From Coraliomargaritaceae bacterium (GTDB taxonomy: Bacteria > Verrucomicrobiota > Verrucomicrobiia > Opitutales > Coraliomargaritaceae): 64,000 nt of DNA. The first letter of the stretch is position 1; each line of letters starts with the position of its first letter. The notes under the pieces are model-generated. The model searched no databases and was not told the DNA's origin. It saw nothing but the letters and a program-made list of their open reading frames with translations. Location of the stretch: NCBI GenBank assembly GCA_965659965.1, contig CBFHXZ010000001.1:9049-73048 (forward strand), read 5' to 3'. The position numbers and the translations under genes are program-made. Shown here in pieces: positions 38,372-60,537 of the stretch.

Positions 38372-38461
<90 letters not shown>

Positions 38462-38757: not shown

Positions 38758-40062
38758 CTATTCGGTGGCGGTATCGTCGACGAGGCGTACGCAGAGGGCG
38801 GCGAGCAGCATGGAGGCGCCGCCGAGGAGGACGGCGTTCATGGTGTTGTTGCCGAGGAGGCTGGACATAATTTTACCGAGGCCAAGGGAGGCGCCAATCT
38901 GAGGAAGGACGATAAAGAAGTTAAAGACGCCCATATAGAAACCCATGCGGTTGCCGGGTATGGCGTTGGAGAGAATGGCATAGGGCATGGAAAGGATGCT
39001 GGCCCAGGCAATACCGACGGCGAGCATGGAGAGGAGCAGGAGGTTGGGGCTGCCAACAAAGTTGACAGAAAGGAGCCCGAGTCCACCGATGGTGAGGCAA
39101 ATAGTGTGAATGGCTTTGGCGCTGTATTTGCGGACAAGGAGAAGGAGGAGGAAAGCAAAGACAAAGGCAACGCCGTTGTAGGCGGAGAAACAAACCCCGC
39201 CCCACTCGGCTCCGGCCTGATATTCGGGACTGCCCTGTGCGCCGCCAAAGACGTGGGTGGCGACGGCGGGGATGAAATAAATCCACATACAGAAGAGGCC
39301 GAACCAGGTGAAGAATTGGACCACCGCAAGTTGTTTCATGGTGCGGGGCATGGAGGCGATACCGGCAAAGATTTCGCGGAAGGCGTTGGAAACGCCGGCA
39401 GTTTTTTTGTTTTCCTCACGGAAGGCTTCGAGGTCTTCCGGCGGGTATTCACGGGTAGTGAGGACGGTATAGAGGACGGCGATAAAGAAGACAAAGGAAC
39501 CGATATAAAAGGCGAGGTGAACGGATTGGGGGATGGCGTTTCCGCCGGTGGTTTCGTTGGAGACGTTGAACCAATTGGAGAGGACCCATGGGAGCGCGGA
39601 GGAAAGAACGGCTCCGAGACCGATAAGAACACTCTGCATGGCAAAGCCGCTTTTGCGTTGTTCGCGGTTGAGTTTATCGCCGACGAAGGCGCGGAAAGGT
39701 TCCATACTGATGTTGACGGAGGCGTCGAGAATCCAAAGCAAGCCGGCAGCCATCCAGAGGGAACTGGAATTGGGCATGGCGATCAGGGCTAGGCTGGCAA
39801 GGATGGCACCGATTAGGAAATAGGGACGGCGGCGCCCAAGGAAGCACCAGGTACGGTCACTGTAGTAACCGACGAGGGGTTGAACGATGAGCCCGGTGAG
39901 GGGTGCGGCGAGCCAGAGGAAGGGAATGGCGCTTTCCTCAGCACCGAGGTATTGGTAGATGGCACTCATGTTCGCCATCTGTAAACCCCAGCCAAATTGG
40001 ATGCCGAAGAATCCGAAACTCATGTTCCAGATTTGCCAGAAGGAAAGATTGGGTTTGTTCAT
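38758..40062 (-). CDS. MFS sugar:H+ symporter, GPH/SUT/SLC45-like (probable maltose/maltodextrin carrier)
   Basis: 12-TM protein with YYSDRTWCFLGRRRPYFL (the SUT/SLC45-type RxGRR motif). Last gene after malQ. Confidence 0.75.
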   Translation of the reverse strand: MNKPNLSFWQIWNMSFGFFGIQFGWGLQMANMSAIYQYLGAEESAIPFLWLAAPLTGLIVQPLVGYYSDRTWCFLGRRRPYFLIGAILASLALIAMPNSSSLWMAAGLLWILDASVNISMEPFRAFVGDKLNREQRKSGFAMQSVLIGLGAVLSSALPWVLSNWFNVSNETTGGNAIPQSVHLAFYIGSFVFFIAVLYTVLTTREYPPEDLEAFREENKKTAGVSNAFREIFAGIASMPRTMKQLAVVQFFTWFGLFCMWIYFIPAVATHVFGGAQGSPEYQAGAEWGGVCFSAYNGVAFVFAFLLLLLVRKYSAKAIHTICLTIGGLGLLSVNFVGSPNLLLLSMLAVGIAWASILSMPYAILSNAIPGNRMGFYMGVFNFFIVLPQIGASLGLGKIMSSLLGNNTMNAVLLGGASMLLAALCVRLVDDTATE

Positions 40063-40081
40063 TTTTATATGGGAGTTGAGG

Positions 40082-41659
40082 TTATTTTAAATGAGCAAGG
40101 GTAGGATGCGCGGCGAGTCCGCGGTCGCTATTGGTGGTGATGGTTGCAAGCTGCTGCATAGCCGGGGCAAGGCCGTCGGTACTGGACAAGCGCCAAACCC
40201 AACTACCAGAGGCTTGCCCGGGAATATTCATGCGGGCCTCGGAACCAAGGCCGAGTAGATCCTGCAGAGGGATAAGGGCGGCGGCAGCATGGGAAGCACA
40301 TAGGCTGCGAATAAAGTCGAGGTGGATTTGAGAGCCATCGGTTCCAAAATACGCGCAGGCAGCGGCTTTTTCACGGTCAATCGCTTCCTGATTGCGGGTA
40401 CTGTTGGTTCCGGCGGCGCTATTGAACCAACCGACCGTGGTATCGTTGTCGTGCGTGCCCGTATAAGCTACGCAAGAGGAATCGTAGGCATCGGGAATGA
40501 AGCTCGATTTCATTTCGTCGGTACCAAAGGCAAATTGCAGGATGCGGATTCCAGGTAATTTGTAGCGGTCGCGGAGGGCAATGACGGCATCGGTAATCAC
40601 GCCCAAATCCTCGGCGATAAGGGGAAGCGGCTTGCCAAAAGCAGCTACCATATCTGCGAGTATTTCATCTCCACAGGAGGGAACCCATGCACCGTCCGTA
40701 GCAGTCGAAGCCCCAGCAGGCACTTCCCAGCATGCGTCAAAACCGCGGAAATGGTCGATTCGCACGATGTCTAGCCAATCAAGGGTTTGCTGCACGCGAC
40801 TGCGCCACCAATGAAAATGCTCGGCGCGGTGAGCGTCCCAGTCGTAGATGGGGTTACCCCAGAGTTGTCCGGTGGCGGAAAAGTAATCGGGCGGTACGCC
40901 GGCAACGACGCGCGGGCGCCCGTCGGGCTTGAGTTTGAACAATTCCGGCCGGCACCAAACATCCACGCTGTCATGCGCTACGAAGATAGGAAGATCGCCA
41001 ACGATGCGGATTCCCAGCTCCTTGGCGCAATGGCGCACCTCCGACCATTGTTGATGGAGGATGAATTGCTCGAAGAAGACGCGTTGGATGTCCTCTTGTA
41101 ATGCATGGCTGACTCTATCGAGGGCACCGCGGTCGCGGTCTCGGAATTCGGCAGGCCATTCTGTCCATGCGATGCCTCCATGCTTTTCCTTGAGGGCGTA
41201 AAAAAGGGCGTAGTCGGGCAACCATGATTTGGCATTCTCGAAAAAACGGGCATAGCTTTTTCGCAGGGGACTGGCGGCATTGGTCTGGAAAAAGCGCTTG
41301 GCGGCGAGCTCGGCCATTTGCTTTTTATTTTGGTAAACCCGGGCGTAATCAATGCGGTCCCCCATGGGTAATTTCAAACGCTCTAATTCCTGCGCGGTGA
41401 TGAGTTCCCGCTGGCACAGGTCTTCGGGGCTGATAAAAATGGGATTGGCGGCAAAGGCAGAAAGTCCCTGATAGGGCGAGTCCCCGTAACCAGCGGGATT
41501 AAGGGGAAGGATTTGCCACAGGCTTTGTTGTGCCGCCGCGAGGGTTTTAAGCCAATCAAGCGCTCCAGGTCCGAAGTCGCCTACCCCGTAGTCACCTGGC
41601 AAAGAACTGGGGTGAAGCAGGATGCCACTGTCGCGGTTGAATAGAGGTGAGGCGTTCAT
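40082..41659 (-). CDS. malQ: 4-alpha-glucanotransferase (amylomaltase, GH77)
   Basis: 525 aa. SGILLHPSSLPGDYGVGDFG, SPYQGLSAFAANP, DLPIFVAHDSVDVW, GVPPDYFSATGQLWGNPIY, IVRIDHFRGF, IAEDLG, YTGTHDNDT. Confidence 0.9.
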   Translation of the reverse strand: MNASPLFNRDSGILLHPSSLPGDYGVGDFGPGALDWLKTLAAAQQSLWQILPLNPAGYGDSPYQGLSAFAANPIFISPEDLCQRELITAQELERLKLPMGDRIDYARVYQNKKQMAELAAKRFFQTNAASPLRKSYARFFENAKSWLPDYALFYALKEKHGGIAWTEWPAEFRDRDRGALDRVSHALQEDIQRVFFEQFILHQQWSEVRHCAKELGIRIVGDLPIFVAHDSVDVWCRPELFKLKPDGRPRVVAGVPPDYFSATGQLWGNPIYDWDAHRAEHFHWWRSRVQQTLDWLDIVRIDHFRGFDACWEVPAGASTATDGAWVPSCGDEILADMVAAFGKPLPLIAEDLGVITDAVIALRDRYKLPGIRILQFAFGTDEMKSSFIPDAYDSSCVAYTGTHDNDTTVGWFNSAAGTNSTRNQEAIDREKAAACAYFGTDGSQIHLDFIRSLCASHAAAALIPLQDLLGLGSEARMNIPGQASGSWVWRLSSTDGLAPAMQQLATITTNSDRGLAAHPTLAHLK

Positions 41660-41672
41660 GATTACAAATGCT

Positions 41673-42515
41673 CTAATCCGTACGGGTCACTTGCAGTGCA
41701 CCAAAGTAAGCGTTGTTGGCGCCGCCGTTGAGATTAAAGAAGGCGAGGCCGCGAACCTCGCGTTTCACTTCAGAATCGGCATTTTGCTTCTGCTGTGGCA
41801 ACTGTAGGGGACGGTTTTTGAAATGATGTACGACCTGATCGCTGAGGGTCATGATCTGCAAATCATAATGGTTGTCCTCGCGGATTGTGATCCCCAGTTC
41901 GGCTCCACGGGGGTCTATAAAGACACGGGTATTGAAACGATTGCCGCCATCAAAAAGCTGGTAAGTGCTGAGCCCTTCCAGAATCGCAAGGACAAAAAGA
42001 CGCCCCTCGGCAATGGCATCGAGTGAGTTGGCGGTGGCATCGTTGCGCAGGGCAATCCCGACGCTGGAGATTTCCTCGGCATCGCGTTCAAACTTGGTGG
42101 TAAAGCCTTCGAACTTAAAGCGCAGGGAAAAATGGTCACCCGGTGCGAGGCTGCGATCAAAGGCGCGAAAAGCGACGGTCTCTTCAAATTGAGTCCCGTT
42201 GGCAAAGATCCCAAAGGCCTTGCCGTAGCTGCCAAAATCCGCGAGTTCGGTTTCGCTTGCAGCATCTGCAATGAAAAAGCCTGCGTATTGTTCCTCGTCC
42301 TCGCTTGCGTACTCGGGCGCGAGGAGTTGCCAAACTCCGAAGCCGCGACCGCTTTGTTCACCGGATTGCCAACCATCGCTGTAAGCGTCGAAATAAGCTT
42401 CGTCCTCTCCTGCGATATAGGTCTGAGCATAGACGGTTGTAAAAGCGCACAAGGCCAGAACGGTGGCGCGAAACAAACCCGATCGATAAATGAAAGAAAT
42501 TGGTAGGTGGGACAT
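41673..42515 (-). CDS. secreted hypothetical protein, GFGxW family (paralog of the PEP-CTERM protein at 56161..56979, without the anchor)
   Basis: Signal peptide. Shares AY..W..G...G.GFG.W.L....YAG.FI.D....FG..AN and a C-terminal N..YF..L.VT pattern with 56161..56979. Start chosen at the ATG at 42515; an ATG at 42572 is also possible. Confidence 0.55.
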   Translation of the reverse strand: MSHLPISFIYRSGLFRATVLALCAFTTVYAQTYIAGEDEAYFDAYSDGWQSGEQSGRGFGVWQLLAPEYASEDEEQYAGFFIADAASETELADFGSYGKAFGIFANGTQFEETVAFRAFDRSLAPGDHFSLRFKFEGFTTKFERDAEEISSVGIALRNDATANSLDAIAEGRLFVLAILEGLSTYQLFDGGNRFNTRVFIDPRGAELGITIREDNHYDLQIMTLSDQVVHHFKNRPLQLPQQKQNADSEVKREVRGLAFFNLNGGANNAYFGALQVTRTD

Positions 42516-42577
42516 TATTTCTGTAAAGGTGAAGGGTATAAAATTAAGGACTTCGCCCGCACTGCAGGACATGCTGA

Positions 42578-42589
42578 ACCGTTGAACAA
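42578..42589 (-). promoter_or_regulatory. TTRTTCAACKRT motif (TTGTTCAACGGT), candidate operator or internal-promoter element
   Basis: Lies in the 99-nt gap inside the glucan cluster, 63 nt upstream of the 42515 start. 42578..42595 is 16/18 identical to 53266..53283. Confidence 0.4.
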
Positions 42590-42614
42590 ATTTAGAATAT
42601 TAGAATTATGGCAA

Positions 42615-43046
42615 TCAGCCCTCACCGAAAGAAATGGAACGGATTCCGACGGCTTTAAGAACATTGAGGACGTTGACCACGCTTTGCTGGTAGGTTTCGG
42701 GGTCGGGTTGGATGATGACAATGGTTTTGAGTCCGGCGCGGTCGGAGGAAAGCTTGAGGCCTTGTAGGGTTCGCCTGAGATTGGGCAGGTCGGGGTTGCC
42801 GGGATTGTCGGAGGGCATGCCGTTGAGCAAGGTTGTTCCGTCGACAAGAATATCAATGTAATGCTGCTCAGGAAGCGGAGTATCGGGGGGCGCGGCCATG
42901 CTGGAGGGCAAGGTCACTCCGAGGTCGGCCTCCTCTTTGATTATAGAAGTGGTAACCATGAAATAAACCAACAGGAGGAAGACGATGTCGATCATAGGGG
43001 TGAGATCGACCCGGTCTTCAGAGATTTGGATGCGGCGCGCTTTCAT
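42615..43046 (-). CDS. exbD: biopolymer transport protein ExbD/TolR
   Basis: 143 aa. DLTPMIDIVFLLLVYFM TM helix and an ExbD periplasmic domain. Confidence 0.85.
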   Translation of the reverse strand: MKARRIQISEDRVDLTPMIDIVFLLLVYFMVTTSIIKEEADLGVTLPSSMAAPPDTPLPEQHYIDILVDGTTLLNGMPSDNPGNPDLPNLRRTLQGLKLSSDRAGLKTIVIIQPDPETYQQSVVNVLNVLKAVGIRSISFGEG

Positions 43047-43051
43047 GGTTC

Positions 43052-43465
43052 TTATTTATCGCTCTGGAAACTGGCAAAAATAACATTGGGTACCCCACCG
43101 GCTGCGGCGGCGGCAAAGAGCTTGCGAACCTCCTTGAAGGGTACACGGGCATCCGCGCGAATGTAGACCTTGATTTTCGGGCTGTCCTCGCGTGCCTGTT
43201 GTACGTAAGCGGTCATGTCTTCAACCGCGATAGGCTGGGATCCAAAAAAGAGGGAACCGTCGTTTTGAATAGTAACAACCACCCGTGAACTACGGTCCTC
43301 TGGGATGACGGCGTTGGCGGCAATAGGAACGTCAATTTCGACCAATTCCTGCACCTGCATTTTCGCCACAGTCATAAAAAAGACGATCAGCAAAAAGACG
43401 ATATCGATCATCGGAGTGAGATCGGGAAGGTCGTTCGCGGTATCGTTCTGTCTGGCTGGTTTCAC
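43052..43465 (-). CDS. exbD: biopolymer transport protein ExbD/TolR
   Basis: 137 aa. DLTPMIDIVFLLIVFFM, a second ExbD paralog, 5 nt upstream of the next gene. Confidence 0.85.
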   Translation of the reverse strand: MKPARQNDTANDLPDLTPMIDIVFLLIVFFMTVAKMQVQELVEIDVPIAANAVIPEDRSSRVVVTIQNDGSLFFGSQPIAVEDMTAYVQQAREDSPKIKVYIRADARVPFKEVRKLFAAAAAGGVPNVIFASFQSDK

Positions 43466-43510
43466 GCGTGGGAAAAATTCAACAGGGCCGGTGCTTCAGG
43501 AAATATAGGC

Positions 43511-44281
43511 TCAGTTGTTCTCCTTGTGGAGCATACCCTGTTTGGCCATCAGACGGGTCATGGTGCCCAGGGCTTCATAAACTCCTGAGGAGGCAGTGAG
43601 GTATTTGTTCTTAAAATAGAAATACGCCATCAGGGCGGGAATGGCGATAAGGAGCCCGCTGGCGGTCGTGACAAGCGCCTCGGAAATATTGTTGGCGAGC
43701 AACTCGGGTTTACCGAGTCCTTGCGAAGCGATGTTACGGAAGGCTTTCACCATTCCGCTGACGGTTCCGAGCAGTCCCATCATGGGAGAGATGGAGGCGA
43801 TCACTTGCAGGTATTGCACAAAGACCAGGGGTTTCGCCAATATTTTACCCGCGCGTTCCTCCATCGCTTCGTTTACGGCGGCAACGGAACAATGCCCCTC
43901 TTCGATGGTATTGAATGCAATCGCAAGAATTTCGGTCATATAACCTTCTTGCTCGCGACAAGCCTTGAGACCCTTTTCAGGATCGCCGCTCTCGATTGCC
44001 TGTTTCAGGGCGTCAACCGCCTCCGGTTGGGTAAAGCGCGATTCTTTAATCAAGAGAGCGCAGTAGACCGCGAGTCCAACCAGAGCGACGGAGAATGCGA
44101 GGAGGGGATACATGGCCCAACCTCCCTGTTGAAAGAGCGTCCATAGGGTTACGGAAGTCTCGCTGGTTTCGGGAACCGTAGATGCGTTCTCCTGTGCGTT
44201 AAGAGTGGCGGCAGTTCCAAGAAGAAGTAACGCGAAGCGCGTCCACAAGGTGCCGGTGGCTTGATAGTTCAGTGCAGTCAT
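43511..44281 (-). CDS. exbB: MotA/TolQ/ExbB proton-channel protein
   Basis: 256 aa with an N-terminal signal-like segment and three TM helices. Contains MMGLLGTVSGMVKAF and ALVTTASGLLIAIPA motifs. Confidence 0.85.
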   Translation of the reverse strand: MTALNYQATGTLWTRFALLLLGTAATLNAQENASTVPETSETSVTLWTLFQQGGWAMYPLLAFSVALVGLAVYCALLIKESRFTQPEAVDALKQAIESGDPEKGLKACREQEGYMTEILAIAFNTIEEGHCSVAAVNEAMEERAGKILAKPLVFVQYLQVIASISPMMGLLGTVSGMVKAFRNIASQGLGKPELLANNISEALVTTASGLLIAIPALMAYFYFKNKYLTASSGVYEALGTMTRLMAKQGMLHKENN

Positions 44282-44296
44282 AATTGAGGAGCTTTA

Positions 44297-45382
44297 TTAT
44301 TTTGGTGATGAATGATTTCGAGACTTTTCGCAGCCCCATTGGCTGGCGGGAAACATAATGGAGACTTCCTGGTGCGCCTGAGTGGCAGCGTCCGGCATTT
44401 CCATTTTTTCATAAAGTAAGGCGAGGGTATGCAGCAATTCAGGGTACCATGGGTCCGTGGCGGCGGCATGGGTCTTGCCCCGCGCCGCGGCCCGCATGGC
44501 AGCCGGATACTCCCCTTGTCGTAATTTCCAGCGGGCATCGATTAATTCCCGAAGGGAGAAGTAAGGTTCGTTGATCTGGATTTTCGGCAAATCCTGCAGG
44601 ATGGATTGGAGCGATTCCGAATCCACGAGATAAAATCCACAATACGCAGCCCATAACCAGGCGGCCAATTGATGCGCGGATTTCTCCCCACTGACTTTGT
44701 GGTACATATCAAAGGCCTTTTGATATTCACCGATCTCGCGCCAGGAATCCCCAAGTGACAATAGCACCTCAAGCCGGGCAGGCCCACCACCCTCCATCGA
44801 AAGGAAGGAGCGGTGAATTGATTCCAATTCTGTTGTGGCCTGTACACGGTGGAGCGAAAGCGCGCTTCGGCCAATTTCATCCAGAATTGCAGGCGGAACC
44901 TCACGCATGGGCAGCGCGGTGACCAAAGCGGCCAAACGCTTCCAGTTTCCCGTGCCCCGCAGGGCCTCAAAATAGGCCCGCACGGTGGAAACGTAGTTCC
45001 CGGGCAAATGACTCAAGCCCATATATTTCAAGAAAGGGCGTGCTTCCGGCTCAATAAGCGGCAACGCCTGAAGCGGTTGATCGTTGTTTAGTTTTTTAAG
45101 GCCATCGTAGAATGCATCACTCAGCAGGAAATTGAGCATAACCTTCTCTTTTTCGAGGGTATCAAAATCAAGGTAAGCCCGTCCCCCAAAATCAGTGCCC
45201 TTTGGCCGGAAAACCAGTGAACGACTTTCCAATCCTGTCAGTATGACCGAGTCCGTCTGCATGGGGTATCGAAGTTCAACGGGAAGCTCCGCCGCGCCGA
45301 GCGGTCCTGCGCAACACGGGGCAAGCGCAAGCACACAGAGGCGTGGAATCATTTTTATCAGCAGTGGCGGCATGAGGTTCAT
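44297..45382 (-). CDS. hypothetical exported helical-repeat (TPR-like) protein
   Basis: Signal peptide (MIPRLCVLALAPCCAGPLGA), alpha-helical repeat character, and a 4-nt overlap with the upstream TPR gene. No TonB signature seen. Confidence 0.5.
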   Translation of the reverse strand: MNLMPPLLIKMIPRLCVLALAPCCAGPLGAAELPVELRYPMQTDSVILTGLESRSLVFRPKGTDFGGRAYLDFDTLEKEKVMLNFLLSDAFYDGLKKLNNDQPLQALPLIEPEARPFLKYMGLSHLPGNYVSTVRAYFEALRGTGNWKRLAALVTALPMREVPPAILDEIGRSALSLHRVQATTELESIHRSFLSMEGGGPARLEVLLSLGDSWREIGEYQKAFDMYHKVSGEKSAHQLAAWLWAAYCGFYLVDSESLQSILQDLPKIQINEPYFSLRELIDARWKLRQGEYPAAMRAAARGKTHAAATDPWYPELLHTLALLYEKMEMPDAATQAHQEVSIMFPASQWGCEKSRNHSSPK

Positions 45383-48300
45383 GGGGTCAACCGTTTGCGG
45401 CGGATAGCATCATAGTATGGAGAGGCCTTTGAAGTGGGCAGGTCGAGGAAATATTGATAGGTTCGCTGTGCGGAATCAGAATCCCCCATCGCTTCGAGCA
45501 AATCCGCACTGGCCAGGACGGCCTTGCCCGACCACTCGGGGTAGGCGGAGAATGCAAGATAGGTGCGCTCATAAAAACCCTGTGCTTTGGCGAGATCCTC
45601 CAATTGGGCAAAACATTCGCCCATTTTAAAGCTTGCCTCGGCCCAAGCCTCGCCGCGCCATTCCCGTTGGTTAAGCACCATTGCATAGGCCTCCACCGCT
45701 TCTTGCAACCGCTCGGTCTGGCGCAAGGCATCACCGCGCAGGATCGCCGACCGCCGGGCATAAACAGAAGTAAAGTGTTCCTCCAGCACACGGTTGTGAT
45801 ACGCTTGGGCAGCTTCGTGATTGTGGCGTTGGGATTCCAATGCTCCCAATAGAAAAAGACCCTCTGCAGCAGCAACGCTATCCGGCACTCCGGAAACCAG
45901 TTCCGTGAGAATTGTAATCGCACGCTCCGCATCTTCCTCCGCGATCAAACGAGCAATCCAGACCTTGGAGGCAGGGCTTGCAGACTCGACCCAGTCAGCC
46001 GTGAATTGCCCTGTTTCAACTGCCTCACCGTCACGCTGGTTCAGCACCCGAAGGAGACGCAAAGCAAGGGTTTCCTGTCCCGCCGCCACCGCAGCAGCAT
46101 ACATCGCTCTAAAAACCCAGGCAGGTTTTTCAGGGGGTAGTTTCGCAAGCCGTGCCTGGTTACGCGCAAGCAACTCACCCAGCGCAGGGTAGTCCTCAAG
46201 GCTCAACGCGCGTCCATCGGTCGTCGCAACTGCGGCATCGGTATGCGCTGCCAACTCTCCGTACAGGGGATGGCGCATTGTGAGCAATTCCTTAATACCG
46301 GAATCAATGGCTTCGTGTTGCTGGAAATAACTTATTTGTGCAATGCGATCATAGAGCATGCGCGCACGAAAAGACTCATCACCCAACAAGGCCTCAATGA
46401 ATGTTGCCGTTTCTGCCGCCCCCGCGCGTATTGCCGAATCCTGCTCCCACCAAGAATCAATAACCACATCCACGTCGTCCGATTTCGAGTCATTCCCAAA
46501 ACGCTCAATCCCGTCGCGGTAGCGCGCAAAGGCCTCGGGCACCCTACCCTGGTCCAATGCAGCCTCAGCCATCCGCATAATGGCCTCGGCACAGGATGCC
46601 GACTCCGGGTATTTGTTAAGAAATTCCTCCAGAATCCCGTCATGTTCCGCATGACGCTTATTCGCAAGCAAGAGTGCCGCCGATTCAAAATAGGCGTGCT
46701 TGATCATAGCCAAGGCACCTCCATGGGTTTCCACCAGGCGATAATGCATGAGTGCACGCTCCACCCGGGCATCCATCGCATCAAGATCCCCCATAAATAC
46801 ATACGCCTCCGGAACAAGCGGGTGCCCGGATGAATCAGACAACCAGGACTCAAAGACCTCGCGGGCCTCTGCGTATTGACCCAATCCAAAATGCGCAACC
46901 CCCCGGCGGAAACTCGCCTCTTTGAAATATACACTCCCCGGATAATTCGCCAGCAAGGTGTTGAAGGCACTCAGGGCAGATTCAAAATCCCCGCTAAAAA
47001 GGTAGGCCATCCCAATCCAGTAACTGGCGCTGTCGATGAATGCACCATCAGGATATTCCGCGACCCAAAACGAGAAATCTTCGATGATGCGATCGACCAT
47101 CCCCTTCTTGAGGAGCGCCTGACCCAGGTAATGGCTCATTTGAGCCGCGACGGGTTCAAATGGAAAACGGTGCAGGAAATCATCCGCCAGTATCGAGAGT
47201 TTTTCGACTGCTTCAAAACGAGCATAGAGACCGGCGAGTCGCACCGCCAACGGTTTCTCAAAAAGCAGGTAGGACGGCTCAGCAAGGTAGTATTCTCCGT
47301 GGCCCATCGCCTCACTCAAATAATCACAGGCAATACCCTGAGTGAAGGCAGCGTAACGGAATTGCTCAATTTGCCGATGCTGCGGGTAGTTATCGACCAA
47401 TCGCTGAAAGCCAAAATAGGCCTCATACTTACGCTCCATTAATTGCAGGACCCGAGCCTGCCGCCAACGCAAATTGGCGGTATATTTTGGCGCCTCCATT
47501 AATTTCATGCGCTGTTCACGCAGGGCTTCCAGTTCAGCAAACTGTGCTTTTGACGCATCCCCCGAAGACCGGTTGCGGAATGCCCACTCCTCGAGTTCAA
47601 TGAGGCGATCCTCCACCACCTTGAGCAATCGCTCCACCGGCAAAACCATGGAAAATAAAAAACCCGCCTCAAGATAACGCTCCTCATCTTCAAATTTATC
47701 ACCGGTATGTAACAGGCGTAGATTTACCCCAATGTCATATCGAAAATCGCGGTCGGCATTGATCGCGGTCACCAGTTTCAAGAGTTCCGTGATATTATCC
47801 TCCTCAAGGGATTGATCAAAAAGACTGTTCAGGCAAAAGAGACGCACGGCATAGGGATAGCTCCCGCCAAGGAAATTCCATAGTGGTTCATTCGCCTCCG
47901 CAATCCGGTTACTTTCACGTGCCGCATGCACCATGCGCTGAAGCAAGCCTAGCAAATCCTCCTCCTTGATCTGGGCATGGTAAACTTGGGTCGAGTAGAG
48001 ATACCCCTCCATCGCCGCTTCCCATTGCTCACCCGCAAATAAACTATCCGCCCGATTCAGTACCGCCAGCGGGTGCCGCTTGTCACTCAGGAATTCTGCA
48101 ATGAATTCCTCCCAATACGGCACTCCCTTGAGTAGTGTTTCCTTATTTCCGTTCTGCTCAAACCAGCGCATATGCGCGAGCCCCAGACGGTAAAGGTTCT
48201 CGCGGTAAATGCCGCGGTATTCCTCACTCATCGCGTTGGTCAGGCGCGTCCTTATCTCAACCATAAAGGGTATCACGGCAGCTGGCTGCGTCTCGTAAAG

Positions 48301-48450
48301 CGTATCCACCTGAGCCGCGAGATCCTCCAGGGTTAAATCTGGAAAATTCTCCACCTGCGCTTCCCCAAAAAGCAAGGGCGCGGGTGTGATGAGGCAGAGC
48401 GTAAGAGCAACCAAGCACGAAAAACGAATCAACTGCCCTTTCACCATCAT
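45379..48450 (-). CDS. large exported tetratricopeptide-repeat protein
   Basis: 1023 aa with a signal peptide and many W/Y-x-A-x-F/Y-x-G-type TPR units (e.g. AAQAYHNRVLEEH, EASFKMGECFAQLEDLAKAQGFYERT). It has 4-nt overlaps with both neighbours. Confidence 0.7.
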   Translation of the reverse strand: MMVKGQLIRFSCLVALTLCLITPAPLLFGEAQVENFPDLTLEDLAAQVDTLYETQPAAVIPFMVEIRTRLTNAMSEEYRGIYRENLYRLGLAHMRWFEQNGNKETLLKGVPYWEEFIAEFLSDKRHPLAVLNRADSLFAGEQWEAAMEGYLYSTQVYHAQIKEEDLLGLLQRMVHAARESNRIAEANEPLWNFLGGSYPYAVRLFCLNSLFDQSLEEDNITELLKLVTAINADRDFRYDIGVNLRLLHTGDKFEDEERYLEAGFLFSMVLPVERLLKVVEDRLIELEEWAFRNRSSGDASKAQFAELEALREQRMKLMEAPKYTANLRWRQARVLQLMERKYEAYFGFQRLVDNYPQHRQIEQFRYAAFTQGIACDYLSEAMGHGEYYLAEPSYLLFEKPLAVRLAGLYARFEAVEKLSILADDFLHRFPFEPVAAQMSHYLGQALLKKGMVDRIIEDFSFWVAEYPDGAFIDSASYWIGMAYLFSGDFESALSAFNTLLANYPGSVYFKEASFRRGVAHFGLGQYAEAREVFESWLSDSSGHPLVPEAYVFMGDLDAMDARVERALMHYRLVETHGGALAMIKHAYFESAALLLANKRHAEHDGILEEFLNKYPESASCAEAIMRMAEAALDQGRVPEAFARYRDGIERFGNDSKSDDVDVVIDSWWEQDSAIRAGAAETATFIEALLGDESFRARMLYDRIAQISYFQQHEAIDSGIKELLTMRHPLYGELAAHTDAAVATTDGRALSLEDYPALGELLARNQARLAKLPPEKPAWVFRAMYAAAVAAGQETLALRLLRVLNQRDGEAVETGQFTADWVESASPASKVWIARLIAEEDAERAITILTELVSGVPDSVAAAEGLFLLGALESQRHNHEAAQAYHNRVLEEHFTSVYARRSAILRGDALRQTERLQEAVEAYAMVLNQREWRGEAWAEASFKMGECFAQLEDLAKAQGFYERTYLAFSAYPEWSGKAVLASADLLEAMGDSDSAQRTYQYFLDLPTSKASPYYDAIRRKRLTP

Positions 48451-51400
48451 GGATTTTGTAATATGAGCAGTGCCGAAGATTGTGGTTCTAGTTTCAAGCG
48501 AACCTTACCTTCACGAACTTTAAGGCGGTTACTACCAAGGACGTCCTGCAATTCCCCGCTTTGTATTTCAGGACCCAAATCCAATTCCATGACCGCGTCC
48601 CGATCGCTGCGGTTAAAGGCCACCAGCGCGCGATTCGAGCCATGAGCACGAAGGTAGGCATACGCCGTATCATTAGCGACAAGCGTGCGGCGGCTCCCCA
48701 TATACAAGGCAGGATTCGAGCGCCGTGCCTGCGCCAATTTTGAGAAATGATCCCGAACGGAAAGCTCCGCGATGGTGACTTCGCCATCAAAACGCATCCT
48801 GCGCCGGTTGTCGGGATCCCCTGCTCCCGTCATACCTATTTCATCACCATAATACAGCATAGGTACCCCGTCGATCGACATAAGGAAAGTCATTGCCAGC
48901 TTTAATTTCCTGAAGGCTGCCGGGTCGTCCACCCGAAGCGTTTTACTCCAACCCACCTCTTCCTCATCCGCTTCATCCGAGTCCGGCAAATCTCCATCCG
49001 CATAAGCCATGAAACGCGGCTTGTCATGATTGCCGAACAAGGGCGACATACGGGTGCTGCGACCATAAGCCGCCTCCGATTCACGCAAGGCCGCCTCCAA
49101 TTTAACAAAGCCCGCAGTATCAAGCGCAAAGCATTCCATCAGGGTGTCGTACAGCGGAAAATCAAATTGCCCATCCAGCATATTGGGCCCCACAAAAGCC
49201 GAAATACCTTCCCTGCTTTGAAAGGTCTCCCCGACAAAATAATGACGCGCACCCGGGAAGCTATCCCGCATATGTGTACGGAAGCGCCACCAAAAATCAG
49301 GGCGTATATGCTTCACCGCATCGAGGCGGTAACCGTCCAAACCAAAGCTGCTAATCCAGTATGCCGCATCCTCAAGTAGGAAATCCACCGTCTCGGGATT
49401 TCGAAAATCAAAAGCGGGAAGGAAGGGTTCAAACCACGTAGTAAACGGATTATCATCCCAGCGCCGCAAATTCCGTGTACCATCGCTGAGCTCTAATTCC
49501 CCAAATAATTCCGGTCGCTCTGTTCGGATGGGGTTTTCAATGTGCACGTGTTTGAGCACCAAATCCGCGAGAATCTTGACCTCTCTCTCATGCGCGGCAT
49601 CCACGAGTGCACGCAGGGCTGCCTCGCCCCCAAAACGCGGCTCAACCGCATAGCGGCGAATGGGCCAGTAACCGTGGTAACCGGTGTAGGAACGAAACGG
49701 CGGCAGGTATTCCTGCCAGGCACCCGCAGGGTTTTGATTCAGCGGCGCGAGCCAAATAACATTCACCCCCAGTGATTCAAAGTAGCCCGCCTCAAGCGCT
49801 TGCAGCACGCCCTCAAAATCACCTCCGTGATAATTCGCCACCGGATCAACTTCGGGGTCTTCCACCCGAGCAGTATTGGCAGGATTCCCATCTTTAAAAC
49901 GATCGGTAAAGGCATAATAAATGATGTCGTCACGCCAGTTGTCCTTTGGCGGTTTTCCTGCAAACGCAATCGCCGGCCATCCAACCCTACCGTCCGCACC
50001 AACCGTGATCACCCGAACCAAAGTTCCCGTGGGTACCAAGCCCTTGTAAGCAACACGCAGGGCATGTTTATCCAACTCCACCGGCAAGGAAACACACCCG
50101 CCCTTTTCAAGAAGGCCTTCAGCATAGGCGCTTTGAATTTCCTGATTCGCACGCAACTTAATGGCGGCGCGATCCAGCTGCTCCACATATAAGGTCAGTT
50201 GTTCCTTTTCCCCGGTCGCACCGGAAGCCTGCATCAAGCTGTTGAAACCACCATGTCCGTCCGCTTCCTGTGATGGATTTCCCGGGTCCGGCATCCAGTT
50301 TCCGTCGACCACATATTTATACCGAATGCTCGGTTCCTTAATTGCTTTATCGAGCTGCCAACCCTCCTTTGTGCGCTGCAATAAATCCGCCGCTGCATTC
50401 CACCCATTGAAATCCCCAACCAAAGCGACCGAGTTCGCCTCATGATAGCCTTTTAATTCGAAGGTCAAACGTGCTACCACATCAATAGCGACCGGAATGG
50501 AACTCTCAATCACGGGCTCTCCCGCACGGGTTGGCACGAGCCGCAAGGGCAACACCCGCAAGCCCAAAGCATTACTGTCCACCCGTAGATTCAAGCGATG
50601 GTTCAGCGAATCCAACTCTGCATTTATACCATCAACTTTCCCAACCGCAAAACGATGGTACTCGCCGGGGTTTCCGTATCGGCGCAAATCGATGCTGTGG
50701 CTTGCGCCCGCTTCCAATCGAATCAAAGGCGAAGCACCGAGATATGCCTGCCCCGCCGGAAGCATCGCCCCCACCCTTATCCCCGCGGGTTGCGCCTCCA
50801 CCAAACTCAACTTGAGGTAGGCCGACGAATGCGACCCTATGCTTTCCAAATATAGCCCTTCGCGCCCCACGTAATCCGCTGGCCAAGCGACCGACTCCCC
50901 ATCATTACCCCTGAGGCGTTCCTCCATCACGATCCAGCCCGATCCCCCTTCATTAATGCCCAGGCTAGACAATGCCGCTTCGGGGAGGCGAATCCGAACA
51001 TGACGCATATCCGCTTTGGGATGAAAATTACTGGCTACCAAGTAATGCGAGTCTGCGGTCGGATCACTCCGCAAATATGCGTGCAGCCAATGCCCCGACG
51101 GGCCCACATCCTCGATTTTCCCGTAGAAGGGATTGTCCTGATTCGCCTCATTCAAGAGAATGGTATTTCCCGTCGTAAAAGCACGCTCCCCAAGCAAACC
51201 TAGCAAACCCACGTACCAGGCGCGCAAATCCCTCTGCTCCGACGATAGCCCCGCTCCGTCAGCAGCACCTTCGTTCCACCATTTGTTCAACTCCGACAAC
51301 GACCAATAATCAAAAATCGAAGTGCGCTCATCGTCCCCGCCAAACCCTTCACGACCCAGCGCAGGCTCACCCACTTTTTGTCCGTGGTAAACCATCACCG

Positions 51401-53189
51401 GTCCGCGCGACAACCCGAAGAGTGTACCCGATACCGGGCGACCTACGTCCATTCCGCCTCCGCCCCAGGTATGAGGGTGCGCCAGCCGTACCTCATCGTG
51501 ATTTTCAGTGTAACGCAGGGCGCGGTCAAAAAACATCGCCCCCTTCTCCGCGTTCACGCGGTCCAGATCATTCGCCCATGCACCGGCCTCCACTAATTCC
51601 ATAAGCACGTCGTAACTCGCGTCATCATAGACCGCATTGAAACCCGCATCGAGTAGCGCCACCATTACCCCGTCCGATTCACGCAGCGTTGGCTCATGAC
51701 TCGGCACTTTCGCAGGGTCGTCCTCGTAGGCCTCTGCCACAAAGAAGACTTCCGCCTGCCGCCCGCGGGCCCGATGAATCAACCATTTCCAAAACTCCGG
51801 CGGAACCATGTGCGCCATATCCACCCGAAAACCATCCACTCCCAATTCCTGCCAATACGCTATGATGGCATCCATCTTTTTCCAGGTGTCGGGAATGCGT
51901 TGTCGCGGACTCAACGCGCTGGGGTATTCCGGCGGCGCCCCCCGATCCCGAAAATTGAAGCCGTAGTTCAACTTCACGGTTTCATACCAATCGCCAGTCG
52001 AAGGTTGCCAACTGACCACGTTATTGCCGGTGACCTTGCCATGCCTGCGCTCAGGCTTAAAATAGCCATCCGCTCTCCCGACCACCCGCGCGGTCTCGTT
52101 AACGACCTTTCCCGTTTGCGGGTCGATGGTCGGAAGTCGCAAGGGGCCGCCCCCCTCAACCACCTCAGGAGTCAGGTAAAAGAAATTATTATCCGGTAAA
52201 AAGAATTTACTCCGGCGATCCTTGTTACCAAAGACCAGCTCCGGTCGAATGTCAGAAGCGTAGCTGCGCGCGACGTGATTGGGCACAAAATCAATGACCA
52301 ATTTCAACCCGGCGGCACGGATACGAGCCGCCAGGGCTTTGAACTCCTCGAGCCGCGCCGCGGGGTCCTCCGCAAGATCGGGGCTCACATCAAAGTAATC
52401 ACGGATAGCGTAGGGACTGCCCGCAATCCCCTTGAGGAGGTCGGGGTCATCCGCGGGTTGCCCGGCGGCGGCGTAATCCGTTGAGGTGGCGTGCTGCAGG
52501 ATTCCGGTGAGCCAGAGGTGGGTGTAGTGATCCGCCCGCAATTTTTCGAGCACCGCCTCACTGAGGTCGCTGAATTTTCCTGAACCGTTCTCGGCGAGGG
52601 TGCCGTTGACTTTACGCCGCTCGTTTTCATTGCCAAAGAGGCGCGGGAGGAGCTGATAGATGCGTGGTTTCTCACCCCAAGCGCCCAAAGCGCCCTGCAC
52701 CTTGAGTGCTCCCGAACCGGAAGGTTGGTAATAACGCGGCAGGTAAACATCGCCCCCCGCACTGCGGGCGATATCCCGCTTTTTAGGCGCCAGCATTCCG
52801 GATTCCGCAAGCCCAAACCATTGCACCGCCTGAACGGCATCCCAGCCAGCAGCACCCCTGAAGCGAAGCGTGAGCTGCCCCCCCTTGTGCTTCAGATCTA
52901 CTCCGGGGTCGCTCGAGGTGTTCCATTTGAAATCGCGGTAAACCTTAAAAACCGGCGCGCTACCACCACGAGATTCAATGATGAGGTCCGCTTGAAAGGG
53001 AAGAAACACCCGGCGCCCACCATCAACCGCCACCACCGTTGAACCAAACCGCGCACTTGCATCTAAAGCAATCCAAAGACTTTCACCCGGCGCAGGCGCC
53101 ACGATGGGCAATTCCAAGGTAAGGGTCTTTGCTTCCAGGCAAAATGACCCAAGTAATAAGGATAAGCAAAAACGGATTTTTAACAGCAT
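48447..53189 (-). CDS. secreted multi-domain alpha-glucan enzyme: two GH13 catalytic modules separated by a CBM48/AMPK-beta-like glycogen-binding module
   Basis: Signal peptide. GH13 module 1: VIDFVPNHVA, GVDGFRVDMAHMV, FFVAEAYE, YTENHDEVRL. CBM48-like: VALVGDFNGWN..YKYVVDGNWMPDPGN. GH13 module 2: ILADLVLKHVH, GLDGYRLDAVKHI, YFVGETFQ, FGNHDKPRF. Confidence 0.85.
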   Translation of the reverse strand: MLLKIRFCLSLLLGSFCLEAKTLTLELPIVAPAPGESLWIALDASARFGSTVVAVDGGRRVFLPFQADLIIESRGGSAPVFKVYRDFKWNTSSDPGVDLKHKGGQLTLRFRGAAGWDAVQAVQWFGLAESGMLAPKKRDIARSAGGDVYLPRYYQPSGSGALKVQGALGAWGEKPRIYQLLPRLFGNENERRKVNGTLAENGSGKFSDLSEAVLEKLRADHYTHLWLTGILQHATSTDYAAAGQPADDPDLLKGIAGSPYAIRDYFDVSPDLAEDPAARLEEFKALAARIRAAGLKLVIDFVPNHVARSYASDIRPELVFGNKDRRSKFFLPDNNFFYLTPEVVEGGGPLRLPTIDPQTGKVVNETARVVGRADGYFKPERRHGKVTGNNVVSWQPSTGDWYETVKLNYGFNFRDRGAPPEYPSALSPRQRIPDTWKKMDAIIAYWQELGVDGFRVDMAHMVPPEFWKWLIHRARGRQAEVFFVAEAYEDDPAKVPSHEPTLRESDGVMVALLDAGFNAVYDDASYDVLMELVEAGAWANDLDRVNAEKGAMFFDRALRYTENHDEVRLAHPHTWGGGGMDVGRPVSGTLFGLSRGPVMVYHGQKVGEPALGREGFGGDDERTSIFDYWSLSELNKWWNEGAADGAGLSSEQRDLRAWYVGLLGLLGERAFTTGNTILLNEANQDNPFYGKIEDVGPSGHWLHAYLRSDPTADSHYLVASNFHPKADMRHVRIRLPEAALSSLGINEGGSGWIVMEERLRGNDGESVAWPADYVGREGLYLESIGSHSSAYLKLSLVEAQPAGIRVGAMLPAGQAYLGASPLIRLEAGASHSIDLRRYGNPGEYHRFAVGKVDGINAELDSLNHRLNLRVDSNALGLRVLPLRLVPTRAGEPVIESSIPVAIDVVARLTFELKGYHEANSVALVGDFNGWNAAADLLQRTKEGWQLDKAIKEPSIRYKYVVDGNWMPDPGNPSQEADGHGGFNSLMQASGATGEKEQLTLYVEQLDRAAIKLRANQEIQSAYAEGLLEKGGCVSLPVELDKHALRVAYKGLVPTGTLVRVITVGADGRVGWPAIAFAGKPPKDNWRDDIIYYAFTDRFKDGNPANTARVEDPEVDPVANYHGGDFEGVLQALEAGYFESLGVNVIWLAPLNQNPAGAWQEYLPPFRSYTGYHGYWPIRRYAVEPRFGGEAALRALVDAAHEREVKILADLVLKHVHIENPIRTERPELFGELELSDGTRNLRRWDDNPFTTWFEPFLPAFDFRNPETVDFLLEDAAYWISSFGLDGYRLDAVKHIRPDFWWRFRTHMRDSFPGARHYFVGETFQSREGISAFVGPNMLDGQFDFPLYDTLMECFALDTAGFVKLEAALRESEAAYGRSTRMSPLFGNHDKPRFMAYADGDLPDSDEADEEEVGWSKTLRVDDPAAFRKLKLAMTFLMSIDGVPMLYYGDEIGMTGAGDPDNRRRMRFDGEVTIAELSVRDHFSKLAQARRSNPALYMGSRRTLVANDTAYAYLRAHGSNRALVAFNRSDRDAVMELDLGPEIQSGELQDVLGSNRLKVREGKVRLKLEPQSSALLILQNP

Positions 53190-53265
53190 TTTAAAGAAAC
53201 AAAACTATTGGAAACCCCAAGAATAACAAGGATTCACCGACCTGAACGAGCCGCCTCCCTATTTG

Positions 53266-53277
53266 ACAGTTGAACAA
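53266..53277 (-). promoter_or_regulatory. TTRTTCAACKRT motif (TTGTTCAACTGT), candidate operator upstream of the glucan operon
   Basis: 77 nt upstream of the start at 53189, in the divergent intergenic region. AACCCTAAA lies 1 nt away. Confidence 0.4.
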
Positions 53278-53323
53278 GTTTAGGGTTTTCCTCAAGTACC
53301 CCGCATTTTATCTTTACCCCTTA

Positions 53324-54451
53324 ATGATTGCATCCACATCCGCCCGCAAAACGCCCCTGCAACGACTCCTCAAGCGGCCCTTGTGGCTCATTTTGTGCAT
53401 CAGCCTGCTCCTGCACCTCATGGTCGGCCTTTTCTTCGGCAGCTGGAAGATTTTTTCCATTCTCACCAAAGACGAAGCCGTCTTTGAAGTCGCCACCCCT
53501 CCGCAATCCATCCAGCCCAAACAGCGCGACTATAAAATTAAAACCATGCGTGCCCAGCGTTCCACCGCGATGGCGACCCAAATCCCCATTACCGTGGATA
53601 TGCCCAACTCCATCGACCTCCCCTCCATTCAAATTCCCAAAACGCAAAGCGCCCAGAGCGCGATCAAGGCGCGGGGCGACGCCGGTAGTTTTGGTGCCGG
53701 CGACGGCGGGGGCGGCTTTACCACCCTCTTCGGAAACACCGCGCCGCTCGCCGGCGCGCTCGAGGGTACCTTTATCGACCTCAAACAGGACCGCTATCGC
53801 GAGGGCGCCTCTGGAGAGGACTGGATGGATGTCGGCAAAGGATTCCTTCGCAGTTACCGCCTCCGCGAATTCCGCAAATGCTTCAACGCCCCGCAAAAAC
53901 TCTTCGCCACCCATTTTTATATCCCCCTGATGGCGGCAGATGGCGTGCCCCGCGCCTATGGCGTCGAGAATTTGGTGGAAGCCAGCAACTGTGTGGCGCT
54001 TTATCAGGGGAAGTTCAGATCCCTCTCGGGCGGAAGGTATCGCTTTGTAGGAACCGCCGATGATATCCTCATTGTGGGCGTGGATGGAAAAACCGTGCTT
54101 TCGGCAGGCTTCACTGAAGCCAACCCCGGCAAGTGGGAACCCAAAGATGAACCGGTTCATTCCGGCCCGCCGGTCTCGGAATATTTACCCAAGCTCACCG
54201 TCGGTGACTGGTTTGACCTGCCAGCGGGAGCGCCGGTCGACCTCTCCGTTCTCATCGGCGAAATACCCGGCGGGGAATTCGGTTGCTACCTCTTTATTGA
54301 AAAAAGCGGCGAAACATACGAGACCACCGCCGAGGGACGCCCCATCCTACCCGTCTTCAAACTCAAGGAATTTTCCCGCTCCGAACGCCAGACCCTCGAA
54401 CAGGACGGCTACCCCAAACGCCTCGACGGCGAAGTCTTCGGCTACTACTAG
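53324..54451 (+). CDS. membrane-anchored hypothetical protein with a PA14-like C-terminal region
   Basis: One TM helix (LWLILCISLLLHLMVGLFFG). ALYQGKFRSLSGGRYRFVGTADDILIVGVDGKTVL resembles the PA14 beta-sandwich core. Start set to the ATG at 53324; the ORF-track TTG at 53270 lies inside the regulatory motif. Confidence 0.45.
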   Translation: MIASTSARKTPLQRLLKRPLWLILCISLLLHLMVGLFFGSWKIFSILTKDEAVFEVATPPQSIQPKQRDYKIKTMRAQRSTAMATQIPITVDMPNSIDLPSIQIPKTQSAQSAIKARGDAGSFGAGDGGGGFTTLFGNTAPLAGALEGTFIDLKQDRYREGASGEDWMDVGKGFLRSYRLREFRKCFNAPQKLFATHFYIPLMAADGVPRAYGVENLVEASNCVALYQGKFRSLSGGRYRFVGTADDILIVGVDGKTVLSAGFTEANPGKWEPKDEPVHSGPPVSEYLPKLTVGDWFDLPAGAPVDLSVLIGEIPGGEFGCYLFIEKSGETYETTAEGRPILPVFKLKEFSRSERQTLEQDGYPKRLDGEVFGYY

Positions 54452-57967: not shown

Positions 57968-57979
57968 TTATTCAACTGT
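57968..57979 (+). promoter_or_regulatory. TTRTTCAACKRT motif (TTATTCAACTGT)
   Basis: 74 nt upstream of the PEP-CTERM gene start at 58053. AACCCTAAA follows after 2 nt. Confidence 0.4.
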
Positions 57980-58052
57980 TTAACCCTAAAAGTTTTTTCA
58001 TTTCATCAAAATTAGCCAATTGTTGAAGTATTAATCGATTTATATTTTTATC

Positions 58053-60483: not shown

Positions 60484-60537
60484 AGTAATAATAGGTAGTA
60501 AGGGATCCTAAACATACACAAGAAGCCCACTTAGTCG

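Follow-up and report, generated by a model that had tools for sequence, protein, structure and literature searches.

A conserved Ton-like motor cassette nested in an alpha-glucan locus of Coraliomargaritaceae: a candidate for an energized envelope step in glucan acquisition

Why should the genes of a proton-driven envelope motor lie in the middle of a set of genes for the degradation and uptake of alpha-glucans? The question is raised by a block of nine genes on the minus strand, at positions 38758-53189, of a 64,000-nt stretch of contig CBFHXZ010000001.1 from a Coraliomargaritaceae bacterium (below, "the window" means this whole stretch). The block contains a complete Ton-like cassette nested in alpha-glucan genes, and the nesting is conserved and joined by a common cis element. 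The reading that we favor, giving it a probability of about one half, is that of a sugar-regulated alpha-glucan regulon with a built-in Ton-like motor, which would drive an energized envelope step in glucan capture or import, a lectin-like head serving as the force-applying end. The role in energized import itself is a plausible prediction.

The nine minus-strand open reading frames (ORFs) are located as given in a preliminary description of this DNA, and hidden Markov model (HMM) scans agree with its domain calls, namely a double GH13/CBM48 enzyme, two TPR proteins, ExbB, two ExbD proteins, a protein without family (X), a GH77 enzyme and an MFS transporter. The first product is an exported enzyme of 1580 aa (48447..53189), in which the HMM scans identified two GH13 regions, weak at aa ~200-620 (36 and 24 bits) and strong at aa ~1094-1457, a CBM48/AMPK1_CBM region at aa 916-987 and, at the C-terminus, a maltogenic-amylase C-domain (Malt_amylase_C); its signal peptide, as read from the sequence, is MLLKIRFCLSLLLGSFCLEA. 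It is followed by TPR-L (45379..48450), an exported protein of 1023 aa with YbgF/CpoB- and BamD-like repeats (TPR_6/16/12; TIGR02795 at 118.3 bits, the cutoff being 90.1) and a weak PorW/SprE match (53 bits), and by TPR-S (44297..45382), an exported protein of 361 aa in which a small N-terminal domain precedes a helical, TPR-like part with weak TPR matches. The TPR-S family was found in Opitutales only, and its window member is 21-22% identical to the equivalent gene of other cassettes. The stator genes encode an ExbB/TolQ-type proton channel of 256 aa (43511..44281; PF01618, 92.9 bits; best NCBIfam matches TolQ and ExbB, both below the equivalog cutoffs) and two ExbD/TolR paralogues, the first of 137 aa (43052..43465; PF02472, 91.3 bits) and the second of 143 aa (42615..43046; PF02472, 69.4 bits; 75-100% identity in related loci); the paralogues are ~34% identical to each other and both have the transmembrane (TM) motif PMIDIVF with its conserved Asp. 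The block is completed by the gene of the exported 281-aa protein X (41673..42518), that of the GH77 4-alpha-glucanotransferase MalQ (40082..41659; 525 aa, without a signal peptide; PF02446, 538.9 bits; NF011080, 624 bits, above the cutoff) and that of an MFS sugar:H+ symporter of the GPH/sucrose-transporter-like type (38758..40062; 434 aa; MFS_1, 93.7 bits; TIGR01301 GPH_sucrose, 117.8 bits).

By this layout, the stator and TPR genes are indeed locked in, as had been proposed, with the exported amylase on one side and the cytoplasmic steps on the other. The junctions include two 4-nt overlaps (48447-48450 and 45379-45382) and gaps of 15, 45, 5, 13 and 19 nt, in agreement with the earlier account; the gap between ExbD2 and X is 96 nt (X starts at 42518), not 99 nt. 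Consensus scans for promoters and terminators gave 10 matches vs 10.5±3.5 in shuffled sequence and 29 vs 22.2±5.3, and are thus uninformative on the transcription units. Directly downstream of the MFS gene lies a tRNA-Ser(GGA) gene (38372-38461, minus strand), an end mark of the conserved block.

The part that completes the cassette lies outside the block. According to the preliminary description, a TonB-like ORF was lacking both within the cluster and next to it. This is right insofar as no TonB_C domain is encoded there, but an ORF at 53270-54451 on the plus strand, immediately upstream of the GH13 gene and divergent from it, was overlooked; from its probable start (ATG at 53324, 134 nt from the GH13 start) it encodes a TonB-like transducer of 375 aa (53324..54451), designated here TD-PA14. 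The idea that the TPR proteins act in place of TonB is therefore not borne out. TD-PA14 has a basic N-terminus, the helix LWLILCISLLLHLMVGLFFGS with a S27xxxH31 motif, a linker (aa ~46-145) of 101 aa, among them 8 Pro and 10 Gly, made up of a Pro-rich, an EYKIK-like and a Gly-rich part, and, at the C-terminus, a ~230-residue domain that we regard as a divergent PA14-like head. A motor cassette of another Opitutales genome (L028; the related loci are referred to by such numbers) has as its sixth gene a full-length homologue of TD-PA14, with 29% identity over 386 aa and E=2e-26 by tblastn, and the N-terminal ~100 residues of TD-PA14 are homologous to those of vWA-headed transducers (31% identity in 97 aa and E=3e-13 at window 53357-53635, the L026 vWA protein being the tblastn query). 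His31 is invariant in an alignment of eight sequences; in a family alignment of 62 transducers, Ser27 is kept in 51 and His31 in 53. These features characterize TD-PA14 as a putative TonB-like force transducer with a C-terminal domain that is not of the TonB type.

As to the head, Pfam PA14 (PF07691) was recognized in 28 of the 62 full-length homologues, the best match having E=5.4e-8, and GLEYA in five of them, while a profile made of four close TD-PA14 orthologues had PA14 adhesins as its top PDB matches (E=0.007). PDB profile searches with the transducer returned no TonB_C. The vWA domain found in the L026 protein (VWA_3, VWA and VWA_2 matches) had no match in the window transducer or its orthologues. 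The whole family is large, comprising 1124 representatives at 50% identity (E<=1e-3). In 10 metagenome loci and in Coraliomargarita algicola, TD-PA14 orthologues are found beside GH13 and divergent from it; the Cerasicoccus orthologue, in a locus without GH13, directly adjoins TPR-L. More distant PA14-headed transducers occupy the canonical site after ExbD2, at times in tandem: two or three such genes follow one another at L046:65-3435, L047:9965-13341, L053:7595-9954 and L055:9005-11020, an arrangement that recalls the several TonB paralogues that may be served by one motor. For the tandem in L047, the 10 kb upstream contain neither ExbB nor ExbD. The N-terminal helix of one distant PA14-headed transducer (L053:7595-8743) weakly matches GltJ, a TonB-like gliding protein of Myxococcus (E=0.007). 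We found no description of PA14-headed transducers in the literature, and nothing relevant on the PA14 domain together with ExbD or TonB, or on Coraliomargarita together with ExbB.

The conservation of the arrangement was analyzed by a scan of species-representative genomes, in which the nine window proteins were mapped by tblastn onto 20 loci from Coraliomargarita, Cerasicoccus, Thalassobacterium and metagenome-assembled genomes (MAGs) of Puniceicoccaceae/Opitutales. The gene order, whose absence from relatives would have counted against the original proposal, proved to be kept in them. In 15 of the 20 loci, the cassette is joined without interruption to X, GH77 and MFS within the limits of the contig, and six of these 15 contigs reach into GH13. 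Identities to the window proteins are 81-97% for MFS (tblastn) and 60-65% for the GH13 enzyme; the lowest are those of X (44-60%) and TPR-S (33-47%). The outer neighbors of the window block (a glycine-zipper protein, NDK, QueA, TilS and FtsH) had no match in any related locus. Since the genes of the block are conserved and the flanking genes are unmatched, the block has stayed intact where the order of the genes around it was lost, and its recurrence across many genomes with differing flanks makes the arrangement one beyond chance. Two incomplete versions deserve description: in C. algicola, GH13-TPR-TPR-ExbB-ExbD-ExbD lies ~300 kb from X-GH77-MFS, and in UBA7441 (L008) the genes from GH13 through X are present without GH77 or MFS. 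The 4-nt overlap of GH13 and TPR-L is not conserved, the gaps elsewhere being 17-230 nt. A single MAG, XS_MAG35 (JAYYDJ01), carries two versions of the whole cluster on different contigs (L012 and L021), in which X is 54% and 45% identical to that of the window; this could be a duplication or a mixed bin.

The two halves of the locus are further tied by a short sequence, TTGACAGTTGAAC(AA), common to the GH13/transducer intergenic regions, which otherwise cannot be aligned. Its exact form in the window, TTGACAGTTGAACAA, is at 53263..53277 (plus strand), at a distance of 74 nt to the start of GH13 and of 47 nt to that of the transducer gene, and it takes the same place in 13 related loci. Exact or near-exact copies are found 49-61 nt upstream of X in seven loci (L001, L014 and L016-L020), and the gap between ExbD2 and X in the window has a degenerate copy with three mismatches, TGAACCGTTGAACAA, at 42575..42589 (plus strand), 57 nt upstream of X. 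In the genome of C. algicola, with its split locus, the exact 13-mer TTGACAGTTGAAC is present in L023, between GH13 and the transducer gene, and in L001, ahead of the unlinked X-GH77-MFS. A third place is upstream of the gene of a LacI-family regulator on the transducer side of the locus (59419..60483, minus strand; LacI HTH and Peripla_BP_1 domains, with weak MalI, TreR and CcpA matches), a gene conserved with 62-65% identity in six loci (L031, L032, L034, L035, L040 and L042). Here, 52 nt upstream, the window has a copy at 60535..60549 (plus strand) with an exact core, GACAGTTGAA, the element as a whole being degenerate; related loci have two copies, ~6 and ~52 nt upstream. One more degenerate copy, at 57968..57982 (minus strand), with three mismatches to the 15-mer and one to the core, precedes by 71 nt the gene of a 201-aa protein with a PEP-CTERM match (58053..58658, plus strand), a conserved neighbor that is 66% identical in L034 and L035. 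When the 10-nt core was searched with at most one mismatch in the 0.9 Mb made up by the window and the loci, 45 of the 86 matches were situated no more than 150 nt upstream of X, GH13/transducer, LacI or the X paralogue X2 described below.

We treat TTGACAGTTGAAC as a putative operator-like element; it is not a clean palindrome. Its distribution argues for one regulon that would include GH13/transducer, X-GH77-MFS and the LacI gene, with added support from the conservation of the LacI neighbor, and it is the strongest evidence obtained for a regulation common to the transducer, the GH13-led operon and X-GH77-MFS. An interpretation of the element as a sigma-70 -35 box was rejected, as no plausible -10 box occurs at 16-18 nt in either direction. 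A separate case is L037:9701-11088, where an orthologous transducer gene (66%) lies between fasciclin and PAPS-reductase genes with no cassette within 10 kb, and the element upstream of it, TTGACAGTTGAA, is kept.

The protein X, which stands at the boundary of the two halves, had no Pfam or NCBIfam match, and all of its 68 homologues are from Opitutales. An alignment-based AlphaFold2 (AF2) model (pLDDT 74) consists of a signal peptide, a disordered acidic stretch and an all-beta sandwich, for which the best Foldseek matches, with TM-scores of 0.4-0.5, were legume-lectin-like proteins, calreticulin, Emp46/47p, CBM11, CBM4 and GH16. As modeled, the fold is that of the ConA-like lectins/glucanases; binding or cleavage of glycans is a prediction only. 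The N-terminus of X, hydrophobic and of variable sequence, has a final AQ like that of cleavable signal peptides. The position of the gene, which is the usual site of tonB, and the succession of helix, disordered part and globular part in the model would suit a membrane-anchored TonB analogue as well; this candidate was rejected because of the short, variable N-terminus, the AQ-type cleavage site and the lack of a conserved His. A paralogue, X2 (56161..56979, minus strand; 272 aa), is 34% identical to X over 103 aa and carries a C-terminal PEP-CTERM signal, so that it is probably a form of the lectin-fold protein anchored at the surface. Its gene is next to that of the transducer in at least 10 related loci (L030-36, L040, L042 and L043).

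Searches for the usual partners of a Ton motor gave the following results. HMM scans revealed no TonB_C, Plug/TBDT (TonB-dependent receptor) or SusD domain in the nine products or their neighbors, in accordance with the earlier statement that neither a TBDT nor SusC/D is encoded in or beside the cluster, and neither SusC-like TBDT nor SusD-like lipoprotein domains were found in any of the products of 38758-62314. A TonB_C domain hidden in TPR-S or TPR-L, which would have made the system an ordinary Ton system, was likewise sought by HMM scans and rejected, as neither protein had a match. There is indeed a single TBDT in the window, at 7072-9009 (7108..9009 in the first annotation), and it had no tblastn match in the 65 related loci.

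The cassette itself has a much wider distribution than the alpha-glucan locus. The unit TPR-TPR-ExbB-ExbD-ExbD cannot be regarded as special to alpha-glucan, as the preliminary description might suggest, since it occurs across Opitutales in unrelated contexts. Homologues of the window ExbB fall into two tiers, orthologues with at least 60% identity and proteins of other Opitutales cassettes with 45-54%. All seven second-tier contexts that were looked up (L024-L029 and L064) contain a TPR protein of ~1000-1040 aa, a TPR-like protein of ~360-390 aa, ExbB, ExbD and ExbD in mutually unrelated surroundings; the large TPR gene of ~1000-1040 aa is the first gene of every cassette examined. In six of these seven contexts ExbD2 is followed by a sixth gene, encoding ~380 aa in five of them and cut by the contig end in L029. 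Its product in L025, L026, L027 and L064 has a TM helix with S-x3-H, Pro-rich and Gly-rich stretches and a vWA domain, while in L028, L053, L054, L057, L059 and L063 the head is PA14-like. As the ExbB of L028, which has a PA14-like transducer, is 72-79% identical to the ExbB proteins of the vWA cassettes L025-L027, heads have been swapped within one cassette lineage. By ExbB, the clade of the window is a distinct branch, ~50% identical to all others. With its stator, its transducer and its pair of TPR proteins, the window thus has one copy of a widespread and uncharacterized motor cassette of Opitutales and, more generally, of the Planctomycetes-Verrucomicrobia-Chlamydiae (PVC) group.

Many of these cassettes are followed by the gene of a ~1170-1270-aa protein with a pseudopilin-like N-terminus and a weak GspK match (L053:10898-15131, L059:10823-15327, L025:14634-18248, L002:1-2737, L041:4067-5077 and L061:4152-5141), and in L002, L053 and L059 the next gene encodes a protein of ~236-239 aa without a family. 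The pseudopilin-like follower, which has no homologue in the window, may be an additional but optional component of such machines.

Based on this set of genes, the favored scheme would be as follows. ExbB and the two different ExbD proteins should form a proton-driven 5:2 stator, for which the two exported TPR proteins would provide a scaffold. The transducer would be anchored in the inner membrane by its SxxxH helix and extend across the periplasm by the linker of ~100 residues to expose a PA14 lectin-like head, so that proton motive force could be transmitted through it to an envelope step of alpha-glucan acquisition. At the outer membrane, glucan chains or a partner loaded with glucan might be pulled or released in this step. 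Trimming of the glucan, either periplasmic or at the cell surface, would be the task of the exported double GH13/CBM48 enzyme, and its binding that of two lectin-fold proteins, X in soluble form and X2 anchored by PEP-CTERM; the maltodextrins would be imported by the MFS symporter and processed by MalQ.

Several observations weigh against this scheme. X-GH77-MFS is found apart from the motor in C. algicola, Thalassobacterium, L005 and L009, and in Cerasicoccus TPR-TPR-ExbB-ExbD-ExbD-X is accompanied by the transducer, with no GH13, GH77 or MFS nearby. Rubellicoccus, an Opitutaceae MAG, Lentimonas and other genomes have the cassette without alpha-glucan genes, so its basic job is not glucan-specific. 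In the window cluster, as in the 65 related loci, no outer-membrane channel, TBDT or SusC/D came to light. Where a long gap separates GH13 from TPR-L, no cis element was found immediately before TPR-L, and co-expression of the motor genes has therefore to be ascribed to an assumed read-through from GH13. Finally, TD-PA14 itself had no Pfam match, the PA14 thresholds included (TonB_C was absent at E<=10), and its single-sequence AF2 model (pLDDT 37.6) is confident for the TM helix only; since the window protein is below the thresholds and the model cannot be used beyond the helix, the PA14 assignment of its head rests on homology at the level of the family.

Some of these observations would be natural if the cassette were a general envelope machine, engaged in Tol-Pal-like tethering, adhesion or gliding, or the work of a pseudopilin-like fiber, around which alpha-glucan genes had been inserted in one ancestor of Puniceicoccaceae, the nesting being kept since by descent and shared transcription. 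The autonomy of the cassette and its varied contexts in other Opitutales, the Cerasicoccus version without glucan enzymes and the separability of the two halves all agree with such a history, as do the pseudopilin-like ~1200-aa and the ~238-aa proteins that often follow the cassette elsewhere; besides, a role in gliding or adhesion was proposed for the vWA version (Williams-Jones et al., 2025, Mol Biol Evol, PMC12204202). Mere descent, however, does not readily account for the survival of the block where the surrounding gene order has been wholly lost. X goes with either half, as the split and reduced loci (C. algicola, Cerasicoccus and L008) each keep it, the promoter region of the transducer has the same cis element as the unlinked X-GH77-MFS and the LacI gene, and three of the uncharacterized components are predicted to have lectin-type folds. 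For these reasons we consider a general machine with fortuitously inserted glucan genes rather unlikely.

Another possibility is that only the head is unusual and the job is that of an ordinary Ton system, the PA14-headed protein being a functional TonB, or one of several, which energizes an unlinked maltodextrin TBDT in the manner of MalA. The SxxxH helix and the linker are as in TonB, a TBDT does exist in this genome (7072-9009), and some loci have several tandem transducers per motor, like multiple TonBs; ExbBD-dependent import of maltodextrin through MalA is established, according to Neugebauer 2005 as cited in PMC6851124. Yet the transducer has no TonB_C domain, and in none of the 65 loci is a TBDT linked to the cluster, which makes this explanation improbable. 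To our knowledge, there is no way known in which a PA14 or vWA head binds a TonB box, and this, too, counts against it.

The GldLM motor drives type IX secretion, and by analogy the cassette might power the export or anchoring of the giant GH13 enzyme, and perhaps also that of X2, the lectin with a PEP-CTERM signal. GH13 has remained directly upstream of the cassette in C. algicola after X-GH77-MFS left, the two genes overlap by 4 nt in the window, TPR-L has the weak PorW/SprE match of 53 bits, and other cassettes adjoin exported hydrolases (an M60 peptidase, an esterase); but the overlap gives way to gaps of 17-230 nt elsewhere, Cerasicoccus keeps the cassette without GH13, and no secretin, translocon or sorting signal was noted for GH13, so that a secretion or display motor would be a very improbable explanation. 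As for an anti-phage, Zorya-like (MotAB-like) system, it was rejected, as the seven cassette proteins had no PADLOC match.

Returning to the alpha-glucan regulon with its own motor, one may ask how far it could be generalized. The PA14-headed TonB analogues, with at least 1,100 clusters at 50% identity, might represent an undescribed class of proton-driven "glycan hooks", in which the head grips a polysaccharide or a glycan-loaded surface protein and ExbB-ExbD1-ExbD2 reels it through the outer membrane. This is a speculation that we ourselves hold to be doubtful. If true, it would provide for "selfish" uptake of alpha-glucans that is independent of SusC/D and TBDT and under LacI-type control, in Verrucomicrobia and perhaps in other PVC bacteria.

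Three more ORFs on the transducer side of the window should be mentioned. A 411-aa ORF at 54684-55919 (plus strand) has a hydrophobic N-terminus and long Pro-rich stretches and neither a family nor a homologue in related loci; it may be lineage-specific, decayed, or two ORFs read as one. The gene at 57116-57811 (minus strand), between X2 and the PEP-CTERM gene, encodes a GspG-like pseudopilin with a prepilin-type N-terminal methylation motif and a weak match to "Verru_Chthon cassette protein D"; L021 and L022 have homologues of it downstream of MFS. An implausible low-complexity ORF at 61580-62314 (minus strand) is conserved all the same (50-55%, tblastn) in six loci, and the real gene probably occupies a different frame or the opposite strand.

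Among known systems, Tol-Pal is brought to mind by the best NCBIfam matches of ExbB and ExbD, which are TolQ and TolR, and by the YbgF/CpoB repeats of TPR-L, which alone pass their cutoff (TIGR02795, 118.3 vs 90.1 bits). The TolQ and TolR scores, in contrast, are far below the equivalog cutoffs (72.7 vs 221 bits for TolQ; 60.7 and 49.1 vs 127.3 for TolR), and no TolA, TolB or Pal domain was found in the cluster or its immediate neighbors, so the locus is not a Tol-Pal system. With the Ton system it shares the ExbB/ExbD families, the TM Asp of ExbD, the single-pass SxxxH transducer with an extended linker and the tie to the uptake of alpha-glucan oligomers, known for MalA of Caulobacter crescentus. 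It differs in having no TonB_C and no TBDT/TonB-box partner in or near the cluster, although there may be an unlinked one, and in having two ExbD paralogues and two TPR proteins. The Sus system of Bacteroidota (SusA-G) is similar in its exported GH13 enzyme, surface glycan-binding proteins, energized import and sugar-responsive regulator, whereas the window locus is without SusC and SusD, combines an inner-membrane MFS transporter with a cytoplasmic MalQ and encodes the energizer inside the locus; it is not a Sus-like polysaccharide utilization locus.

The closest match in gene content of the motor is the cassette of PVC bacteria composed of TPR, tolQ-like, two tolR-like and vWA "force transducer" genes (PMC12204202). 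The motor gene set and its order (a large TPR, ExbB/TolQ-like, two heterologous ExbD/TolR-like proteins) are the same, the N-terminal modules of the transducers are homologous (a TM helix with a conserved His of the SHLS type, Pro-rich part, EYKIK box and Gly-rich part), and the function of both is uncharacterized. In the window, unlike the PVC cassette, the head is PA14-like and not vWA, the transducer gene is inverted and placed upstream, with GH13 between it and the motor and X at the site after ExbD2, and there are a second, smaller TPR gene, surrounding alpha-glucan genes and the shared cis element. A PA14 variant is not mentioned in PMC12204202; the locus would thus extend the diversity of Ton/Tol-type transducers from vWA to lectin (PA14) heads. 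It would also be the first case in which one such orphan motor is tied to a defined substrate regulon, a starting point for finding the role of these widespread cassettes.

The nearest functional analogy is offered by Fibrobacter succinogenes S85, in which the cluster FSU_2396-2403 (OmpA, two TPR proteins, ExbB, two ExbD proteins and TonB) is upregulated on cellulose together with PA14 "fibro-slime" proteins (Raut et al., 2019, PMC6851124); the cluster and the fibro-slime proteins were proposed to capture and to import the products of the polymer (PMC6851124). The earlier remark that no characterized example of such a machine was known to its author is hence to be modified, since an analogue exists, if a partly characterized one. 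Both organisms would be polysaccharide degraders without SusC/D, in which TPR-TPR-ExbB-ExbD-ExbD is combined with a TonB-type protein and PA14 proteins take part in a capture complex; the differences are in the phylum, in the substrate (cellulose), in TonB and PA14 being separate proteins and in the presence of OmpA. A "selfish" uptake of polysaccharides without SusC/D was described in Verrucomicrobiota and Planctomycetes, its mechanism being stated to be unknown (PMC12323593). With respect to it, the locus is a concrete candidate for SusC/D-independent glycan uptake in the culturable Coraliomargarita algicola, Thalassobacterium maritimum and Cerasicoccus arenae, and nature has supplied intact, "split" and "reduced" versions of it for comparison.

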